The notes beneath the pieces were generated by a model. That model was not told the DNA's origin, searched no databases, and saw nothing but the letters and a program-made list of their open reading frames with translations. A program made the position numbers and the translations under genes. From an uncultured Candidatus Saccharibacteria bacterium (GTDB lineage: Bacteria > Patescibacteriota > 4484-211 > JAGQKX01): a stretch of DNA of 64,000 bases. This document shows, one piece after another, positions 56,733 through 64,000 of the stretch. Location of the stretch: contig CAYMOT010000002.1 in assembly GCA_964392315.1 (NCBI GenBank), positions 41,234 through 105,233 of the forward strand. Direction: 5' to 3'. Position 1 is the first letter of the stretch. Each line of letters begins with the position of its first letter.

Positions 56733-57304
56733 ACAGGCCTCATTATAAGTGCATTTTGCAAATCCGCCAACTAGCGGAGCATATAAAGAAATATCTAAAA
56801 ATGCTATAGGTGTTGTGCAATTGTGATTAGTAAAAAATGACGTTATAATCCGTCAAAATAATGCTGCACATTAAAAGTGGAGGCAGTTTGGGACTTGAAG
56901 GGTGGGTATAAGAAGTCTCTTTTCGGACTTTTTGTATCCCCCCTTCGTTTTTTAACCCCAAATTCCTCCGAAAACTGTTCCCAACAGATCGACAAATCCT
57001 ACAAACTCACGCTGTCCCCCGAGTTTAATGGATACAAGTCCTTACCGTTTCCTCTTTGGTCAAATTCCAATCATTCCCCTTTTAAATACATTGTGCCATC
57101 ACACAATGTATTTCCTCGCTTTATTCCCCTCCCAGGCTTGAGGAAGCCTCCCCATGGTAAGGCATATATTCAAGCTCCTCCTCCCCGGAGGAGTGAAGCA
57201 CACAGCTGATGCGGCTGTGTGTACCTAGAATGTGCTCAAAAGACGAAAGCCCTAAGAGAGCATGTTCTGTTTATTGGCTAGGGCACTATGTAAGAAGGAG
57301 ATTG

Positions 57305-57814
57305 ATGATTCCCCTAGAGCAAAGGGTACGTAATCCCGTAAAGATCGATGTCCCCGGTCTTTGTGTACGCACGCTTGTGGATGAGGTGTTTTGCAGGCGT
57401 GGTGTTTTCGTAGTCCCCTTTCGACGAGGGGATTTCATTCCAGAGAGAGGGGATCTCGTTGCAGAGATTTTGATTATCAATGACCAGAGTGTTCCGATTC
57501 CTTTGGTCTGCCTTCGGGTAAAAAGAGAAGGCAATAGGTACTGGTTCGGGCGGATCTTTCGATTGGTCGATTTTTCCGAAAAGGTTCGTCGAGAAGATGA
57601 GCAAGTTCGGTTGGTCGATGAACAAGGTCGAGAGATTCCTAACACTCCAGAAGATCGGCTCGCTCACATTCTGCGAATGCGTGTCCTTCCTCGGAATGAC
57701 GCACAAAAGAAGCAGTGGGCGTATTGGGGTGATGAATATTGGGTAGCTGCTATCTTCAGCGAACTTCGTCGCCTTAAGGTGCAGGCTGTTCGTGCGGTAG
57801 CCTCGAGGAGGTAG
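57305..57814 (+). CDS. hypothetical protein (Arg-rich), GC-rich region
   Basis: RBS AAGGAG 4 nt before the ATG. 169 aa. No family recognised. Confidence 0.45.
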   Translation: MIPLEQRVRNPVKIDVPGLCVRTLVDEVFCRRGVFVVPFRRGDFIPERGDLVAEILIINDQSVPIPLVCLRVKREGNRYWFGRIFRLVDFSEKVRREDEQVRLVDEQGREIPNTPEDRLAHILRMRVLPRNDAQKKQWAYWGDEYWVAAIFSELRRLKVQAVRAVASRR

Positions 57815-57816
57815 CC

Positions 57817-57912
57817 ATGAGTGCGTTTGGCCGGCTTCTATTGGTCTACTTTGCCTTAATGTGCTTGCTTATGGCGGGGATATTTATGCTCGCCAACATC
57901 CTTGGAGGATGA
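57817..57912 (+). CDS. 31-aa hydrophobic micro-protein (MSAFGRLLLVYFALMCLLMAGIFMLANILGG)
   Basis: GGAGG RBS 5 nt upstream. Its stop overlaps the RBS of the next gene. Not in the ORF track because it is under 60 aa. Confidence 0.35.
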   Translation: MSAFGRLLLVYFALMCLLMAGIFMLANILGG

Positions 57913-57913
57913 C

Positions 57914-58453
57914 ATGACGCATCAAGTGGTGTACGCCCCGTATGGGGCGCGGATTGAGATGGAGTTGGATAGCATACCGTTTCGCGTAGAAATGGGCATG
58001 CACGTGCAGGCGGACACGAAGAGTCTGCTAGGACGGCAGGCGGTTCGCTCGTTGCAGGAATGCAAGTTGCAGCCGCAGCTCTTCGTGACCCTCGATTCTC
58101 GCGGGCTTCCCATCGAGCCAGTGCTGCTTTCGCAGCGGCACGAGGTCTACGGTGTCGAGCTTGCGCTCGCGTGGACCACGCAGGCGTCCAGCTTCGTCGG
58201 CTGGGGGCCGCTGATGGCTCCCTGGATCTACGATCCCAGCTTCGACTGGGAACTGCGCGTCAAAGCTTTGGCGCAAGCGATTGCGGTCAAGCTGTTTCCG
58301 ACGGCGAAGTGCGAGTCAGTGTTCACATTTGCGGGCGGCATCATGATCGCCTATGACACAGACTTGCTGCGTTTGACCAATCGTTCGGCGCAGTTTGAAA
58401 TCCAGATGCCTATGCCCGCAGTGGGTGCTTCGGCCGTCGCTGTGACGGCATAG
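57914..58453 (+). CDS. hypothetical protein
   Basis: GGAGGA RBS 4 nt upstream of the ATG (MTHQVVYAPYG...). 179 aa, Ala/Leu-rich, high-GC third positions. Followed by a terminator. Confidence 0.5.
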   Translation: MTHQVVYAPYGARIEMELDSIPFRVEMGMHVQADTKSLLGRQAVRSLQECKLQPQLFVTLDSRGLPIEPVLLSQRHEVYGVELALAWTTQASSFVGWGPLMAPWIYDPSFDWELRVKALAQAIAVKLFPTAKCESVFTFAGGIMIAYDTDLLRLTNRSAQFEIQMPMPAVGASAVAVTA

Positions 58454-58472
58454 AGAGATAGCTGAATGGCAA

Positions 58473-58508
58473 GGCCGACCCGTCTGACGGGCCGGCCTTT
58501 TGTTTTTT
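58473..58508 (+). terminator. rho-independent terminator
   Basis: GGCCGACCCG-TCTGA-CGGGCCGGCC hairpin followed by TTTTGTTTTTT. Confidence 0.75.
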
Positions 58509-58587
58509 ACTCACATTTTCTCAACAAATTCAGATAACCAGCCTGTAAAAGTATCAATGAGCTCTCATTACAAAAAGGCTTATAGTA

Positions 58588-58617
58588 TTGACATGAGGGT
58601 GTAATTTTTGCTATAAT
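58588..58617 (+). promoter_or_regulatory. near-consensus sigma70 promoter (TTGACA-N18-TATAAT)
   Basis: TTGACA at 58588-58593 and TATAAT at 58612-58617, in an AT-rich spacer upstream of the lipoprotein gene. Confidence 0.55.
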
Positions 58618-58687
58618 GCCGCCAGTTTTCGCACCTCCAGTCCCGAGCGGGTCTGGAAGAATTCACAAGCAGAAGATGGAGGTTTCG

Positions 58688-59362
58688 ATGAAAAAGTTCG
58701 GTTTGTTGTTTGTTTTGTTGCTGGCTCTGGCCCTGGCCGCGTGCGGCGGCAACCCGGCGGCCGATACGACCGGCGGCGCGGCCGCGCCGACGGTGGCCCC
58801 CACAGTCACCCCTGCGGAGACGCCGGAGGGGCAGGATCCCCTACTGGCGGCCCCGGTCGGCAACTCTGGGTACGACAACTGCCTCGATCCGTGGGATCTG
58901 GGGCGGGTGCGCGAGGCCTACAAGTCGAAGATAAGTCCGACAGGTTACGCAGGGACGGTCGTCCTGCTCACCTGGACTCGGGAGGCTGGGCCCCAGAACT
59001 TCGATGAGTGCTACACGAACCGGCATGGCCAATTCGTGTTTACCAAGCACGATGTACCCATCACTGAAGAGCTTTACGAGCGTCTGACCGGCGGCCGGAA
59101 CGACCTGACGGTCCTGGCGCCCGTCCACGCTACGCAGGTACCCTCGGGGTGGGAAGCTTCGATGTGGGTGCATGACTATGTTAATGGTTTCATGACCTAC
59201 GAAGAAGTCAACTCCTACACCCTCTGGGCCTTCCAGAACGACGCAGAAGGCTACCAGATGGTCGCCGGCATGGTGGCGGCCGGCCTCATCGGTGCCTTGC
59301 TCGTTCCCGCGTTGCTCGGGGGCCCGATGGTCCCTGACTGCGGCATGAACAGCTGCGGCTAG
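58688..59362 (+). CDS. lipoprotein (lipobox LAAC) with Ala/Pro/Thr linker and a hydrophobic Cys-rich C-terminus
   Basis: MKKFGLLFVLLLALALAAC|GG signal peptide with a GGAGG RBS. The C-terminal MVAGMVAAGLIGALLVPALLGG TM-like segment ends in DCGMNSCG. The ORF track starts at 58616. Confidence 0.6.
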   Translation: MKKFGLLFVLLLALALAACGGNPAADTTGGAAAPTVAPTVTPAETPEGQDPLLAAPVGNSGYDNCLDPWDLGRVREAYKSKISPTGYAGTVVLLTWTREAGPQNFDECYTNRHGQFVFTKHDVPITEELYERLTGGRNDLTVLAPVHATQVPSGWEASMWVHDYVNGFMTYEEVNSYTLWAFQNDAEGYQMVAGMVAAGLIGALLVPALLGGPMVPDCGMNSCG

Positions 59363-59389
59363 AACGGCCGCAAGGAGAGTAACAATATA

Positions 59390-59428
59390 AAAAGACCCCG
59401 CCCTACTGTAGGACGGGGTCTTTCACGT
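59390..59428. terminator. bidirectional terminator between convergent genes
   Basis: AAAGACCCCGCCCTAC-TG-TAGGACGGGGTCTTT, a near-perfect 15-bp palindrome flanked by A/T runs. Confidence 0.7.
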
Positions 59429-59449
59429 TTATGGGTGTAAATAAAAGCG

Positions 59450-59980
59450 TCAAATACTCACAGATAGTTTCTGATATCCAAGTCTTTCCAAATCTGAGGC
59501 AATGTCATTATAAGACTTCCCTGCTAATCTCCCACCTGCGATAAAGTCTTCTTGGGTGACGTCAGCCAAGCAAAAATCCGGTACCACAAAGTTCTCCTTT
59601 TCTTCTTCAGATGAGAACTCAAAATCTACAAGCACTAAGCCTTCCAAAGCATCCGCGAATACATCCACCTCAGCAGCATGCCCGTTGTAATCAAATGAAT
59701 ATCGAAATTTTCGCAATTTCCTAGCAGGAATATTTCTAAATGCAGCGAATTCGTGCTCTTCCAAATCAATAGTATGCTCTTCATGTTGCGATGCGTCTCC
59801 TCTTTCAATAGGAATCTTTTTGACAAAGGTGTATTTGTCGCCACTTTTTCGAATACGAATTCGAGGATGTGTGGCATCTATGGGTAGATACATATCAATA
59901 ATTTCTTTTTTTGTTGCGTGATGAATGTCGGCGGGGATATATTTTGCCAGAAATGTTAATTCAAGTTCTAATTCAGTCAT
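59450..59980 (-). CDS. CYTH-domain protein (CyaB/thiamine-triphosphatase-like triphosphate tunnel metalloenzyme)
   Basis: RIRIRKSGDKYTFVKK, RKFRYSFDYNGHAAEVDVFADALEGLVLVDFEFSSEEE and FVVPDF match CYTH core strands. AT-rich codon usage like the first part of the window. Confidence 0.6.
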   Translation of the reverse strand: MTELELELTFLAKYIPADIHHATKKEIIDMYLPIDATHPRIRIRKSGDKYTFVKKIPIERGDASQHEEHTIDLEEHEFAAFRNIPARKLRKFRYSFDYNGHAAEVDVFADALEGLVLVDFEFSSEEEKENFVVPDFCLADVTQEDFIAGGRLAGKSYNDIASDLERLGYQKLSVSI

Positions 59981-59994
59981 ACTGCCAAGTGTAG

Positions 59995-60024
59995 CACAAA
60001 AAAAGGGACACCCGGCGGGTGTCC
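59995..60024 (-). terminator. rho-independent terminator (minus strand)
   Basis: GGGACACCCGCCGGGTGTCCC hairpin followed by TTTTTTT on the minus strand, between gene 60061-60414 and the CYTH start. Confidence 0.7.
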
Positions 60025-60060
60025 CAGTGGAGCTACTGCTCCTTTGCGTTGTCTCTCAAA

Positions 60061-60414
60061 CTACTGCCGCCGGCGCGCTCCGTGACGGATCTCGTCTAAC
60101 GCATCAGCGCCATCAACGTCATCGGTGGCGATTTCGGTCTTTCCCGTGTGTTGCTCGAGGCCTTCAATGAAGAAGGCGAAGAGCACCAAGTTCGGTTCTG
60201 CGGTTACGATCTGCAGGCTGTAGCCTCCTTCGAAGAAGAAAGGATACACGCCGATATGGTCGAGGAATCGCTCAAGACTCTCAGGGGTGACGATCTTGTC
60301 GTCAGGCCTGAACACGTAGATGAGCCTGTCGCCGACCAGAATTCCCCAGTTATCCGTACCGAAGAAGTTCGTGAGGAGCCTCTGGACGACTTTCAGAATC
60401 TTCGTTTTGCTCAT
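60061..60414 (-). CDS. hypothetical protein
   Basis: 117-aa ORF with high-GC codon usage. No family recognised. Confidence 0.45.
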   Translation of the reverse strand: MSKTKILKVVQRLLTNFFGTDNWGILVGDRLIYVFRPDDKIVTPESLERFLDHIGVYPFFFEGGYSLQIVTAEPNLVLFAFFIEGLEQHTGKTEIATDDVDGADALDEIRHGARRRQ

Positions 60415-60424
60415 AGAACCCTCC

Positions 60425-60787
60425 TTACGGACGATTTATCCAGAATGTCGTGAGGGTGGCGAATAGTGTAAACACCAACCAAATGGTCTGCCACCTCATC
60501 GACTTTCGGTACATTGCGATGATCATCGCCACGTAGGGCACGATGATCAACAGCGCTATTGGCATACCGATCGAATCCACGCTCACGGCGATTATGCCCA
60601 TACTCAGGGCAGTGGCGACCGATACACGAGAATCAAAGTATGCCATACCGATTGCAGAGGACAGCACGAGAAATGCAGCAATGTATGCACCTTGTTCGCT
60701 TCCGGAGAATACATACCCCATCAGAAAAACGAAAAGTGCAAACTTGCAGATGTCTCGATACCCATTACTTTTGTATGTGTTGTCCAT
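60425..60787 (-). CDS. hypothetical membrane protein (3-4 TM)
   Basis: 120 aa with hydrophobic helices. Confidence 0.5.
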   Translation of the reverse strand: MDNTYKSNGYRDICKFALFVFLMGYVFSGSEQGAYIAAFLVLSSAIGMAYFDSRVSVATALSMGIIAVSVDSIGMPIALLIIVPYVAMIIAMYRKSMRWQTIWLVFTLFATLTTFWINRP

Positions 60788-60796
60788 GGGGCACCT

Positions 60797-61105
60797 CTAA
60801 GCAGCTTCCCTCTCTTCTTCGTCCGGGAAGACGAGGAAGGCAAAGATGGTGATTGTCAGCTCACCGATTGCCAGGACGACTGTCTTGCCTGTGGCGAAGG
60901 GAAGGCGTTCGAAGCCCCCATACTCCATAACCGACTCGATCTGCGCTTCGGTCATGGTCCCTTGGACAATGACCATACAGACGTTGCCATCGATGAAGAA
61001 GTGGAAGTCCACTTCATTTTCGATTGCAAAGTCAAAGGCGTAAGGAAGGGTGTCTCTGACGTACTCTTCCTTTTCGTATCTCGTTCCTACGTATCTCCTT
61101 GTCAT
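60797..61105 (-). CDS. hypothetical protein
   Basis: AAGGAG RBS 5 nt before the ATG (MTRRYVGTRYEKEEY...). 102 aa. Preceded on its strand by a hairpin plus T-tract at 61127-61160. Confidence 0.5.
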   Translation of the reverse strand: MTRRYVGTRYEKEEYVRDTLPYAFDFAIENEVDFHFFIDGNVCMVIVQGTMTEAQIESVMEYGGFERLPFATGKTVVLAIGELTITIFAFLVFPDEEEREAA

Positions 61106-61180
61106 TGTTCTCCTTCTTGCATGAAAAAAGGGTGCCGCCACCTGCGCGGCGCGCACCCTCTTGCTAGTTCAGTTGCGACT

Positions 61181-61354
61181 TCACTCGAGATCGTCGATGG
61201 TGAAGAGGTAGAAATCCTCTTCTCTCCACCAATCGCTGAAGTCTTCCACAGCCTGGCCATCAAATGGCAGGCCAAGGAAATCAGCGACTGCATCGATCAG
61301 GTCACGGATGTTCGGAATCCGTGCCTTCGTACCAGTAGTGCATAAACGCAACAT
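61181..61354 (-). CDS. hypothetical small acidic protein (57 aa)
   Basis: ATG preceded by GAGAGAGGAAATAA. Protein MLRLCTTGTKARIPNIRDLIDAVADFLGLPFDGQAVEDFSDWWREEDFYLFTIDDLE. Under the 60-aa ORF-track cut-off. Confidence 0.35.
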   Translation of the reverse strand: MLRLCTTGTKARIPNIRDLIDAVADFLGLPFDGQAVEDFSDWWREEDFYLFTIDDLE

Positions 61355-61450
61355 TTATTTCCTCTCTCAGTTGGTGAGCCCGCAAAGGCTCAGTTGTTTG
61401 AAATTGGTGCCGCCCATAGGCGGCGGCACCATACAGCTTACTTCAGACTG

Positions 61451-61687
61451 CTACTCGGGCATGCCATCGAAAGGCAAGTCCCAATCGCCACCCATCCAGA
61501 TATTCGGATAATCTGATGTGGGGCACTGGGCAGCCTTCACGGCGGTGGTACCAGCATTCTCGGTCCCGACGATCTCGATGGTAACGTTGTCAGGGGAAAC
61601 GCCCAGCAGCTGCGCAACTTGCTGCAACAGCCTGCCAGTATCGCCCCAGTACACTATCCTATCTGCCCGAATTACGATATCTGTCAC
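61451..61687 (-). CDS. hypothetical 78-aa protein (GTG start)
   Basis: GAGGAGG RBS 5 nt before the GTG. VTDIVIRADRIVYWGDTGRLLQQVAQLLGVSPDNVTIEIVG... The longer ATG-initiated ORF to 61810 has no RBS. Confidence 0.4.
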   Translation of the reverse strand: MTDIVIRADRIVYWGDTGRLLQQVAQLLGVSPDNVTIEIVGTENAGTTAVKAAQCPTSDYPNIWMGGDWDLPFDGMPE

Positions 61688-61755
61688 AGTGTCCTCCTCA
61701 AACTGGTGTGTCCTCCGTGCCCGGAGGACACGGAGGACATGCGCATGTTCGACGC

Positions 61756-62067
61756 CTACAGTGCCGCCGGGTTGGCGAGCATCGGGTAGTTGGCCCGATG
61801 CAGACCGCACCGCTGCGGGTGGAGCCCATGACGGCGAGTCGTCCTACTGCAGCCGGGGATGGTGCACAGCCGCCGCGGGGCGACGCTGTGGTCCCGGGTG
61901 GAGGCCACTTCATAGTGGCCGCTGCAGTTATCGCCACCCTGGTAATCGGGCGTCTGATGGGCAGCATTGATCCTGACGAGGTCATTCGGCGTCATGTTGA
62001 TGAGACGCCGCTTGCGACCGCAGGTCTTGCATTCGACCCTCGTAATAACGCTTTGCCTATTTTTCAA
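61756..62067 (-). CDS. hypothetical Cys-rich (zinc-ribbon-like) basic protein
   Basis: VECKTCGRKRRL...DNCSGH...LCTIPGC Cys pairs. AAGGAG RBS 5 nt before the TTG at 62067 (the ORF extends to an ATG at 62115). Third-position GC favours this strand over the antisense plus-strand ORF. Confidence 0.4.
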   Translation of the reverse strand: MKNRQSVITRVECKTCGRKRRLINMTPNDLVRINAAHQTPDYQGGDNCSGHYEVASTRDHSVAPRRLCTIPGCSRTTRRHGLHPQRCGLHRANYPMLANPAAL

Positions 62068-62120
62068 CTTTGCTCCTTTTTGGGTGTGACCTCGCCGGCT
62101 ATCCGGCGAGGCCACCTAGG

Positions 62121-62537
62121 TTAGTTCAGACTAATTGGAAAGGTCTGGCCGACGAAAGCCGGCATTTCCTGCCGGCCGACTGGAACGACGATCTGAACTC
62201 TCCCTTCGTAGTCGTCGATCCAAATGCCAGCAACTTTGAACCCATGCTTCTGCAGCTCATCCATAGTGTGAGTCAGGAGATCTTGAGGATCTCCATTCAC
62301 TACCTCACAGCTACGATGCGCCGCCAGAACGACCAGGTCAGCGTCGCGGTGCTCCACGAGAATTTGGTCAACCGCATTCTCAGAAGCACCTCCGCCGTCC
62401 ATCTGGAGGTATTCGATATAGGCAATTCCTTCGGTATCGTCAGTGGACATCACTTGCGTAATCGCCACAGGAAGGATATCGCTGAATATCGCAGCATCTG
62501 GGTTGCACGCCACGAACAAGACACGTGCCGTTCTCAT
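62121..62537 (-). CDS. hypothetical alpha/beta protein (138 aa)
   Basis: MRTARVLFVACNPDAAIFSD...DLVVLAAHRSCEVVNGD: alternating buried beta-strand-like segments suggest a Rossmann/flavodoxin-like fold. Its ATG overlaps the upstream stop (ATGA). Confidence 0.45.
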   Translation of the reverse strand: MRTARVLFVACNPDAAIFSDILPVAITQVMSTDDTEGIAYIEYLQMDGGGASENAVDQILVEHRDADLVVLAAHRSCEVVNGDPQDLLTHTMDELQKHGFKVAGIWIDDYEGRVQIVVPVGRQEMPAFVGQTFPISLN

Positions 62538-62683
62538 CGCCCGCGTTCCTCCCAGAGCCTGTCCTGACGCATCTTCCACAGAAGGATGATGGTCAGGATG
62601 ACCATGGATTGTGGCACGAAGATGGCGGTGATGGCCAGCTTGGCCAGGTCGAGTTTGGCCTGGAGGGTGAGTTTAGGCTTCAT
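62534..62683 (-). CDS. 49-aa single-TM micro-protein
   Basis: GGGAGGTGGTGAG RBS. MKPKLTLQAKLDLAKLAITAIFVPQSMVILTIILLWKMRQDRLWEERGR. One-nt gap to the upstream stop and ATGA overlap with the downstream start. Confidence 0.45.
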   Translation of the reverse strand: MKPKLTLQAKLDLAKLAITAIFVPQSMVILTIILLWKMRQDRLWEERGR

Positions 62684-62684
62684 C

Positions 62685-63119
62685 TCACCACCTCCCATAC
62701 TCGACATACACACGTTCGGCCTCGGGGTGCGGGTCCCCATCGAACCAGGCCTGCACTTCCTTCAGGACGTCCCCGGCGCATATCAATTCGCCATTGCCTT
62801 TGATGAAGTGAATGCCGTCGCCGTAGTTCGTGAGCCATCCCAAGCACGGGACTTCCACGAGCCACGAGCCGTCGATATTCGGTGGGACCATGACGTAGGT
62901 GAGACGGCGGGCCGGGGTTTTGCCCCAGAACAGGGGGAAGTACCCTCCCGCTATCACGCTGAAGATCGCGATGCCCGACAAGGCCGCGGCTGTACTGGAC
63001 ATGCCAACATACTGCGATGCCAGCAGTAGGCCCAGGAGCACGAATACCGACCCGAACAACATGGCGACCCAGATTCGGAACAATACCGGGTCGTACTCCT
63101 TCTTCGAATTACTCAACAT
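62685..63119 (-). CDS. membrane protein with two N-terminal TM helices and a C-terminal bacterial PH-like (bPH_2/DUF304-type) domain
   Basis: AAGGAGGT RBS 6 nt before the ATG (MLSNSKKEYDPVLFRIW...). Two TM helices plus a ~75-aa soluble domain matches the YdbS/YdbT architecture. The assignment is by architecture only. Confidence 0.45.
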   Translation of the reverse strand: MLSNSKKEYDPVLFRIWVAMLFGSVFVLLGLLLASQYVGMSSTAAALSGIAIFSVIAGGYFPLFWGKTPARRLTYVMVPPNIDGSWLVEVPCLGWLTNYGDGIHFIKGNGELICAGDVLKEVQAWFDGDPHPEAERVYVEYGRW

Positions 63120-63135
63120 GATCGACCTCCTTACC

Positions 63136-63399
63136 TTAGCCGTGACTAAACTCTGAGAGCACGACGCGCAGCCTATCAAGCGCGCGCACAACGCTCCAAC
63201 CCTTTTCCGTAAGGTGAATCTCGCAGCAGGTGTACTTTCCGGAGAGTTCCACCCAGCCGCGTTCTTCCATCTTCTTGATGATCTCGTCGACCTTCGCGAC
63301 CCCGAGCCGCTGAATTGGTTTGTACCATTCGCACGACATTACGGCGTCGAGGATTGAGATGTAGATCATCAGTTGCTGAGCATGCTTCTGAAATTCCAC
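63136..63399 (-). CDS. small winged-helix DNA-binding protein (putative transcriptional regulator)
   Basis: AAGGAGG 6 nt before the GTG. YKPIQRLGVAKVDEIIKKMEERGWVELSGK is a wHTH recognition helix-wing pattern. 87 aa. Confidence 0.5.
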   Translation of the reverse strand: MEFQKHAQQLMIYISILDAVMSCEWYKPIQRLGVAKVDEIIKKMEERGWVELSGKYTCCEIHLTEKGWSVVRALDRLRVVLSEFSHG

Positions 63400-63449
63400 G
63401 GCAAGCCTCCTTGGGGAGGGGCGTCGTCGGACGACACCCCTCAGTAGAT

Positions 63450-63761
63450 TTAGCCCGGACCCAAGGTCACGGGCAGGACCCAATCGGATAGGTCCTGGTT
63501 GCGGCGGCGTTGCCGTTTCTTGTTGGCGTAGCGGACCTTCTTCGCAGCCGGCCGCTCCTTGCCATCCTGAGACCGGTGCGACCCGATCTCAAAGGTGACC
63601 TTTGCCCCGAACTTCAACTTCTTCTCGTCTCCGTCCCGCGGGATGACCGCGCTGACGTGGACGAAAATCCGCTGATCGCGGCCAGCGTCATCGGTGTATT
63701 TGATCTCACCGTAACGCCGGCTGCTGTGAACCCGAATCATGTAGCCGGACAGACTGTTCAC
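63450..63761 (-). CDS. cold-shock-domain (CSD/OB-fold) nucleic-acid-binding protein with basic C-terminal tail
   Basis: YGEIKY (FGFI-like RNP1), IFVHVSAV (RNP2), GAKVTFEIG and RPAAKKV match the CspA-family pattern. C-terminal KKRQRRRNQ tail. GTG start with a GGGAGG RBS and GTGA overlap with the upstream gene. Confidence 0.55.
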   Translation of the reverse strand: MNSLSGYMIRVHSSRRYGEIKYTDDAGRDQRIFVHVSAVIPRDGDEKKLKFGAKVTFEIGSHRSQDGKERPAAKKVRYANKKRQRRRNQDLSDWVLPVTLGPG

Positions 63762-63982
63762 GATGTAAGTGCCTCCCTGAAGCCCTTGATGAGGGCATCG
63801 GTGTTCCCGCTGAACGGGCCGAGGATCGAAGCGAGCTTCGTGTCGTCGACGAATGTAAGCTCAATTGGCCGCACTTGATGCTCAAGGAGCACGTCGATCA
63901 GATAGGCGCCATTTCTTGCCATCATACCGTCGAACCCGCAAGCGGCCCAAAACCGTCGAGTCGCCTCGCGTACAGTTATCAC
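63758..63982 (-). CDS. hypothetical protein (may extend beyond the window end)
   Basis: GTG start with GAAGG 4 nt upstream. 74 aa. No upstream in-frame stop occurs before the window edge. Confidence 0.35.
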   Translation of the reverse strand: MITVREATRRFWAACGFDGMMARNGAYLIDVLLEHQVRPIELTFVDDTKLASILGPFSGNTDALIKGFREALTS

Positions 63983-64000
63983 TTCGCCTTCGACCCCAGT

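Follow-up and report, generated by a model that had tools for sequence, protein, structure and literature searches.

Near the right-hand end of a 64,000-nt stretch of DNA from an uncultured Candidatus Saccharibacteria bacterium (hereafter the window), three adjacent genes on the minus strand, here called A, B, and C, encode a protein with two transmembrane (TM) helices, a single-pass membrane micro-peptide, and a soluble protein. With the predicted winged helix-turn-helix (wHTH) gene immediately upstream, they constitute a conserved four-gene unit, wHTH-A-B-C, which ends a hairpin-delimited sub-operon. A structural model indicates that C is likely a minimal, divergent member of the β-carbonic anhydrase (β-CA) structural superfamily. 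We tentatively read the whole as a membrane-anchored zinc-protein complex that would serve as an accessory or conflict cassette, and give this reading a probability of roughly 35%.

Gene models and translational coupling

The junctions of the module (coordinates in Table 1) match the sequence exactly as the initial annotation had described them. Between A and B the sequence reads TGG TGA G ATG, leaving 1 nt between the stop of A and the ATG of B; between B and C it reads CG ATG A, the stop of B overlapping the start of C (ATGA). Each open reading frame (ORF) is preceded by a Shine-Dalgarno (SD) sequence: AAGGAGG, 6 nt upstream of A; GGAGG, 8 nt upstream of B; and GGAGG, 11 nt upstream of C. 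As judged from the sequence, this arrangement supports translational coupling of A, B, and C, and such coupling would in turn imply their stoichiometric co-expression.

Alignment to four homologues, together with the AAGGAGG SD, sets the start of A at the ATG at 63119. A 168-aa ORF with a TTG start was considered for A and rejected, as the homologues align from the ATG. The NCBI product for C (109 aa; P0002, where P0xxx labels denote C protein clusters) begins at Met30, which cuts away the conserved N-terminal strand 1 with V6, L7, V9, A10, C11, and P13. That the 138-aa form of C is correct, and not the 109-aa form, is supported by sequence conservation, by the overlap at ATGA, and by the modeled fold.

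In pairwise Nei-Gojobori comparisons, dN/dS for the three genes ranged from 0.17 to 0.52, which marks each of them as protein-coding. The values for A were 0.21-0.42, and B compared with its two closest relatives gave pN of 0.08-0.12, pS of 0.36-0.40, and dN/dS of 0.17-0.22. Purifying selection thus identifies all three ORFs as genuine genes, the 49-codon B included, as had been proposed.

Fold and predicted zinc site of protein C

An AlphaFold2 model of C was built from a six-sequence alignment (predicted local distance difference test score, pLDDT, 82.5; predicted template modeling score, pTM, 0.82); a single-sequence model (pLDDT 50) was too poor and was not used. The core of the model runs β1, helix, β2, helix, β3, helix, β4, and then an antiparallel β5, bearing out the earlier description of C as a cytoplasmic α/β protein. 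In each of three structure libraries searched with this model, β-CAs came out on top, and the list from one library continued with CS2 hydrolase, COS hydrolase, and many more β-CAs. The top Foldseek matches in the PDB and in a viral library were carbonic anhydrases, with weak E values near 1e-3. The four folds suggested for C in the initial annotation (SLOG, TIR, nucleoside 2-deoxyribosyltransferase, and macro) found no support in these searches and were rejected.

When compared with β-CAs (PF00484; Cab, 1g5c; E. coli Can and CynT) and with the CS2 and COS hydrolases, C has the same core fold and strand order, with a Cys at the end of β1 and a His-x-x-Cys at the end of β3, on the zinc-ligand positions. 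These residues, Cys11, His74, and Cys77, are invariant in the six C sequences, and hhalign of the C family profile against E. coli Can/CynT (P 5e-4) places C11, H74, and C77 on the Can zinc ligands C42, H98, and C101. By eye, C also shares a GG loop before the helix that precedes β3, and its β4 sequence, I-W-I-D..E-G, resembles the G-W-x-Y-D..G of Can and CynT. Judging from the aligned positions, C probably binds zinc through the Cys11-His74-Cys77 triad.

In other respects, however, C departs from the family. Its homologues are 135-138 aa long, compared with at least 165 aa among β-CAs, and have neither the N-terminal arm nor the C-terminal helical subdomain; sequence identity is about 15%, and the catalytic Asp-Arg dyad is missing. 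In place of CxDxR, C carries C-[N/D/E]-P-[D/R/S]-[A/D], with an invariant Pro at the Asp position and no conserved Arg. As predicted from these residues, CO2 hydration by C is unlikely because the Asp-Arg dyad is absent. Neither the window protein nor any family member gave a profile match above the Pfam gathering score; Pro_CA (PF00484) matched one of the six members weakly (E 0.19) and did not match the window C. PDB sequence searches with C, A, and the product of the downstream gene D (described below), run both as single sequences and as profiles, returned noise only. C is probably a new, very divergent, and non-catalytic variant of a known fold superfamily.

Conservation of the wHTH-A-B-C unit

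Relatives of C were sought in a word-indexed search of 5.8 billion proteins and a full HMMER pass over 1.84 billion representatives, and long repetitive proteins among the matches were set aside. These protein searches found six clusters, all from a small number of closely placed lineages, and genomic context was fetched for five of them (loci labeled L0xx). Identity to the window C is 87% for P0001, about 35% for P0005 and P0013, 33-34% for P0014, and 27-28% for P0015; the sixth cluster is the window's own sequence. Homologues of A and B were drawn from the contigs carrying C relatives and then aligned.

Every C homologue with enough flanking sequence (P0001, P0005, P0014, P0015, and the window type) shows the order wHTH-A-B-C. 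In all four of the other lineages, A and B again adjoin closely (-4 to +4 nt) and B and C again overlap at ATGA. No insertion was found within the unit in five lineages, while flanking genes have been added or replaced on both sides. For instance, a 125- or 146-aa gene precedes the wHTH gene in L020, L012, and L024, a 61-aa TM gene follows C in L012, and farther upstream L011 and L001 carry a 1026-aa UPF0182 gene where L012 has a 385-aa Band_7/SPFH gene. The order is kept although, between L011 and L012, the module proteins share only 24-36% identity, compared with 72% for trigger factor.

Neighborhood comparison confirmed joint conservation of A, B, and C with every C homologue detected. The initial annotation had named, as the outcome that would undo its proposal, a routine metabolic enzyme in C and genes not kept together elsewhere; neither was observed. 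Hairpins lie between many genes of the surrounding array and none lies inside wHTH-A-B-C; with neither hairpin nor insertion interrupting it, the functional unit is better seen as four genes ending at the hairpin. The three-gene module originally described is therefore real and coupled, but it is not a self-standing system, as the wHTH gene is always attached and the whole is embedded in an array of at least 13 genes.

Membrane proteins A and B

Hydropathy agrees with the earlier assignment of two TM segments to A, one to B, and none to C. A has a short N-terminus, a TM hairpin (residues ~13-36 and ~43-65), and a β-rich C-terminal domain of ~75 aa. The inter-TM loop comprises six uncharged residues, and K/R residues lie past TM2; by the positive-inside rule, A is predicted to be N-in/C-in with its C-terminal domain in the cytoplasm. 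Conservation is higher in the TM half of A than in its cytoplasmic domain, which carries a 23-residue insertion in L001. B has one TM segment (~13-38), and its homologues have 37-49 codons and a TM segment in all five lineages. The C-terminal ERG[RL] of B is conserved in all lineages, its codons overlapping the SD and start of C.

Profile searches covered A, B, C, and about 25 proteins encoded nearby; none of the three module proteins matched a family in Pfam, PHROGs, PADLOC, or NCBIfam, or a defense model of PADLOC-DB 2.0 at E ≤ 1, consistent with the original statement that the module could not be assigned to a described system. A and B are without detectable relatives of known family, and the cassette matches no described system. 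The label "bPH-like" previously given to A was not supported by profiles: the two-TM hairpin of bPH (PF03703) is present, but no match to the Pfam bPH profile was found at E ≤ 10 among five homologues. The actinobacterial Pfam family Holin-X (PF07332) matched three of the five A homologues below threshold (E 0.087-6.9), with a score of 7.2 bits for the window A against a cut-off of 28.4 bits; these matches are probably driven by TM composition. A match of A to the DNMT3B PWWP domain (E 0.03) was taken as chance.

A two-TM hairpin with a small cytoplasmic domain is also the layout of bPH proteins of the YdbS-YdbT type and of Cap15-type 2TM β-barrel effectors. A resembles these proteins and the class II holins in its N-in/C-in hairpin and small cytoplasmic domain, but differs in having no bPH, PADLOC-effector, or above-threshold holin match, and the module has no cyclase, endolysin, or other typical partner gene.

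Allele exchange within the module

Amino acid identity is uneven along the module. Between the window and L001 it is 43% for A, 84% for B, and 87% for C; between the window and L020, 45%, 78%, and 34%; between L001 and L020, 66%, 86%, and 34%; and between L012 and L024, 79%, 42%, and 59%. A sliding-window nucleotide comparison of the window and L001 along the surrounding island gave about 100% identity over 61400-59470, 82-93% over B-C, 50-64% over A, 81-88% over the wHTH gene, and 53-63% over the two genes upstream of it, which encode a cold-shock domain (CSD) protein and a 168-aa protein. Between relatives, blocks of 50-60% nucleotide identity thus stand beside blocks of 100%. Breakpoints fall between A and B, between B and C, and near the intergenic hairpins 62086-62115, 61405-61431, and 60005-60025, the latter two coinciding with jumps to about 100%. 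These uneven identities, and the contrast between the trigger factors and the far more divergent module proteins, show that the island is fast-evolving and exchanges alleles by recombination, which fits conflict-type or mobile-element genes.

The hairpin downstream of C and gene D

The hairpin reported to follow the module is real and longer than stated; its 13-bp stem has one mismatch on DNA. The sense-strand RNA has a folding energy of -28.6 kcal/mol (z = -5.0), which none of 200 shuffles reaches. Hairpin and flanks are present in 20 of the 25 fetched loci. The sequence is near-invariant from the 3' end of the C coding region, across the hairpin, up to the following ribosome-binding site (RBS), also where the C proteins of two lineages share 36% identity. 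Among four distinct hairpin sequences there is one compensatory change (C-G to A-U); one G.U pair is present in all four and a second U.G pair in three. The compensatory change and the G.U pairs favor an RNA hairpin on the sense strand.

On that strand the 3' flank of the hairpin is GUCACACCCAAAAAGGAG, with no U run. An intrinsic (Rho-independent) terminator was considered and rejected: the stem is present, but there is no U-tract and a terminator scan made no call. An integron attC site was also rejected, the hairpin being 30 nt compared with at least 57 nt, and its flanks, by reading in four lineages, being unlike the R''/R' cores (RYYYAAC ... GTTRRRY); no integrase domain was found in ~17 kb of the island. 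Rfam contained no family for the hairpin. It may be an intercistronic RNA element with a role in stability, processing, or partial termination; neither the gene array nor the transcription unit stops there, as gene D follows on the same strand.

The AAGGAG RBS, start, and protein of D are conserved in the window, L001, L005, L020, and L021, and D gives a weak zinc-finger-like Pfam match (E 0.009). Public gene calls differ here, placing a convergent ORF of 98 aa (L011) or 137 aa (L001) across the stop of C; these ORFs are probably spurious, and gene D fits the region better.

Table 1. Features of the window, listed from its right-hand end along the minus strand, with the island last
Feature	Position	Strand	Description
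CSD gene	63450..63761	-	103 aa; cold-shock domain, Pfam CSD 1.1e-6
wHTH gene	63136..63399	-	87 aa; ends 16 nt before A; contiguous with A-B-C in all lineages
Gene A	62685..63119	-	144 aa; ATG start at 63119; two TM helices; from ORF and translation
Gene B	62534..62683	-	49 aa; single-pass membrane peptide; from ORF and translation
Gene C	62121..62537	-	138 aa; soluble, no TM segment; from ORF and translation
Hairpin	62086..62115	-	GC-rich 13-bp stem, arms 62086-62098 and 62103-62115, one DNA mismatch
Convergent ORF	about 61828-62124	+	called in some assemblies; overlaps the stop of C
Gene D	61756..62067	-	103 aa; Cys/His-rich; TTG start; begins 19 nt past the hairpin
Hairpin	61708-61739		GC-rich, intergenic
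Hairpin	61405-61431		GC-rich, intergenic
Hairpin	60005-60025		GC-rich, intergenic
176-aa gene	59450-59980	-	GC 39-42%
Hairpin	59391-59423		GC-rich, intergenic, between convergent genes
224-aa gene	58688-59362	+	predicted lipoprotein
GC-rich mosaic island	57200..64000		about 50-63% GC; holds the module; extends at least 9 kb beyond the window

The gene array and its island

The minus-strand array comprises at least 13 genes: the 168-aa gene, CSD, wHTH, A, B, C, the hairpin, D, and then genes of 78, 57, 102, 120, 117, and 176 aa. The 168-aa gene, which is cut by the window end, overlaps the CSD gene by 4 nt. Profile matches of the wHTH protein are weak (Pfam, E 0.04-0.2; PHROG transcriptional regulator, 9e-4). 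Three plus-strand genes converge on the strong hairpin at 59391-59423, which resembles a bidirectional terminator.

The 176-aa gene of the array has a host-like GC content within the island, and its copies in the window, L001, and L020 share about 100% nucleotide identity; L012 has a gene of the same length at much the same place, but the two are unrelated. Its CYTH-like look, by eye, was matched by no Pfam or NCBIfam family, and we make no such claim. The 224-aa protein encoded on the plus strand combines a signal peptide, which includes a lipobox-like AACGG, with a Thr/Pro-rich linker and a hydrophobic C-terminus, and gave weak lipoprotein-signal matches only.

Up to about 57 kb, the window has a GC content of 40-46% and ordinary chromosomal genes; those left of the island include GlmM-like, MurA/EPSP-family, EamA, and NUDIX genes, tRNA-Val, and trigger factor (tig). 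L011, the same locus in another assembly, shows the extension of the GC-rich stretch beyond the window; over window 57200-64000 and L011:1-15800, the island has 47-63% GC. All C homologues sit in this one syntenic island, which abuts trigger factor in L011, L012, L013, and L015, where the flank is visible, and the site beside trigger factor and tRNA-Val is the same in at least three lineages. Almost all island genes are without a family match. Elsewhere in the island, outside the window, L011:2-772 and L012:1-933 encode the C-terminal part of a 613-617-aa protein, weakly HATPase_c-like; this protein has a CarboxypepD_reg/prealbumin-like domain (E 2.8e-5 to 2e-4) and is followed by the UPF0182 or Band_7/SPFH gene.

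The island resembles the mosaic early or accessory regions of temperate phages and integrative elements in its long co-directional array of small ORFans with wHTH and CSD genes, its mosaic of nearly identical and highly diverged blocks, and a composition atypical for the host. It differs from them in that no integrase, structural, replication, or lysis gene was recognized in ~17 kb, that phage and plasmid records and IMG/VR contigs contained no C relatives, and that its site beside tig is fixed where the flank is visible. A prophage or plasmid origin was rejected on the lack of C relatives in those collections and of recognizable integrase or structural genes in the ~17 kb. Scans of JGI metagenomes with C patterns found nothing, and a literature search on a GC-rich Saccharibacteria island or prophage returned nothing relevant.

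A structured RNA candidate upstream of the operon

Directly upstream of the first gene of the module's operon lies a structured RNA candidate of ~500 nt (L011:8330-8860 (+), corresponding to the minus strand about 260-790 nt past the right end of the window; also L001:7689-8219, L003:4288-4818, L005:831-1361, and L012:7319-7849). Its five distinct variants share 150 predicted pairs in 24 helices, with 97.5% of cells paired. Compensatory double changes occur at 19 pairs, compared with 0-2 in slid controls, and none of 500 shuffles reaches this number; G.U pairs place the candidate on the sense strand of the operon. It is 80-93% identical between lineages whose neighboring proteins are only 24-36% identical. 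Rfam had no family for it, the MIR matches there being artifacts of a long inverted repeat, and a 30-mer from its most conserved hairpin was absent from viral and JGI metagenome contigs.

The candidate belongs to a conserved, ORF-free region of 1.1 kb, the rest of which (L011:7742-8330 (+)) also lies outside the window. This part carries a conserved σ70-like promoter (TTGTCT-17-TATACT, L011:7864-7892), followed by a conserved terminator-like hairpin with a U-run (L011:7949-7974) and by a ~170-nt purine/pyrimidine inverted repeat with an AT-rich center (about L011:8011-8179), which is partly deleted in L012. Possible roles for this part are those of an attenuator or leader, or of an origin-like element.

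Discussion

Under the reading that we prefer, A, with its two TM helices and cytoplasmic β-rich domain, and B, a single-pass peptide, would assemble into a small membrane complex on whose cytoplasmic face the predicted zinc protein C would dock, and the wHTH protein would regulate the unit. C would then be a zinc-dependent sensor, an adaptor, or an enzyme other than a carbonic anhydrase. The cassette would provide an accessory function of the island, for which conflict, exclusion, or interaction with the host bacterium seems most plausible because A evolves fast and alleles are freely exchanged. A bolder version of this proposal would make wHTH-A-B-C an undescribed membrane machine specific to an episymbiont clade of the candidate phyla radiation (CPR), in which a β-CA-derived zinc protein that has lost its CO2 chemistry was recruited with a two-TM protein and a micro-peptide for conflict, exclusion, or host-contact sensing, under an operon headed by the ~500-nt structured leader RNA; in this full form we think it quite unlikely.

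Several points weigh against the complex. The contacts among A, B, and C are postulated, and the binding of zinc by C is predicted from sequence and a model. Tight spacing and 4-nt overlaps occur elsewhere in the array, as between the 168-aa and CSD genes, and coupling may thus partly reflect general compaction. Because the relatives all belong to a single narrow clade and a single syntenic island, co-conservation is not independent of shared ancestry. Finally, C has been swapped between L001 and L020 with B still 86% identical, and A between the window and L001; such breakpoints inside the module weaken the case for a strictly co-evolving stoichiometric complex.

The same features could mean that A, B, and C are mere neighbors among the small genes of a compact array like those of phages or plasmids, coupled by compaction and unrelated in function: the whole array is tightly packed, alleles break between A/B and B/C, and the entire ~17 kb, not only these three genes, is syntenic. 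We find this doubtful, as wHTH-A-B-C stays unbroken in five lineages despite insertions and replacements right beside it, the B/C overlap is invariant and the A/B spacing always within a few nucleotides, and the hairpins that part many other array genes spare these four. The constant presence of the wHTH gene, 16 nt upstream, would be accounted for if the unit were instead a membrane-anchored signaling device, in which A and B sense a membrane or envelope cue and C acts as a zinc or thiol sensor on the wHTH protein and hence on island expression. A Cys-His-Cys site could serve as a redox or metal switch, and the array encodes other nucleic-acid-binding proteins (CSD and the Cys/His-rich D). 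Profile searches, however, detected neither a sensor nor an anti-repressor domain of known type, no repeat resembling an operator was identified, and the apparent promoter is more than 1.5 kb away, on the upstream side of the long structured leader; we consider such signaling unlikely. A could alternatively, with B, permeabilize the membrane as a holin-like or abortive-infection/exclusion effector under the control of C. Its class-II-holin-like topology, the Holin-X matches (best E 0.087), and its very fast evolution and exchange as an allele, as expected of conflict genes, all point in this direction; but those matches lie far below the Pfam threshold and probably reflect TM composition, neighboring genes include no endolysin or other lysis gene, PADLOC gave no match, and phage, plasmid, and viral-contig collections held no relative. 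We therefore regard an effector as distinctly unlikely.

The β-CA-like fold and predicted zinc triad of C, encoded next to two coupled membrane-protein genes, also invite comparison with DAB and the cyanobacterial Cup systems, in which the gene for a CA-fold cytosolic subunit lies beside those for membrane subunits and, in DAB, the products assemble. DAB1 is a heterotrimer of the cytosolic β-CA-like DabA and the membrane subunits DabB and DabC (bioRxiv 10.64898/2026.05.01.722082), one membrane subunit being a non-catalytic structural partner, and the module might by analogy be a miniature vectorial carbonic anhydrase performing directional CO2 hydration. DabA requires a Cys, an Asp, a His, and a second Cys, the active-site Asp being essential (bioRxiv 10.1101/476713); C, conversely, has the invariant Pro at that position and no conserved Arg. 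DabA is also about 800 aa long (PF10070), compared with 138 aa for C, and DabB is a NuoL-like proton translocator of 12-13 TM helices, to which A and B, with three helices between them, have no detectable relation; no match to PF10070 or PF00361 was found. An episymbiont, moreover, would have no evident need for a carbon-concentrating pump. DAB is thus the nearest architectural analogue, but the likeness is architectural only, with every tested feature of membership failing, and a CO2 pump is very improbable.

Saccharibacteria are obligate epibionts, most of whose accessory genes are uncharacterized, and ORFan cassettes are common in CPR genomes. For this locus, the analysis provides corrected gene models (the 138-aa C and gene D), a fold assignment for C, and a defined four-gene unit. 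If the membrane-anchored zinc-protein complex is real, C would represent a minimal branch of the β-CA superfamily that has kept its metal site, lost its catalytic dyad, and always travels with two small membrane partners, and it would offer a compact model for the re-use of the β-CA fold beyond CO2 hydration. Fast-evolving membrane cassettes such as this one are natural candidates for roles in host interaction or defense.

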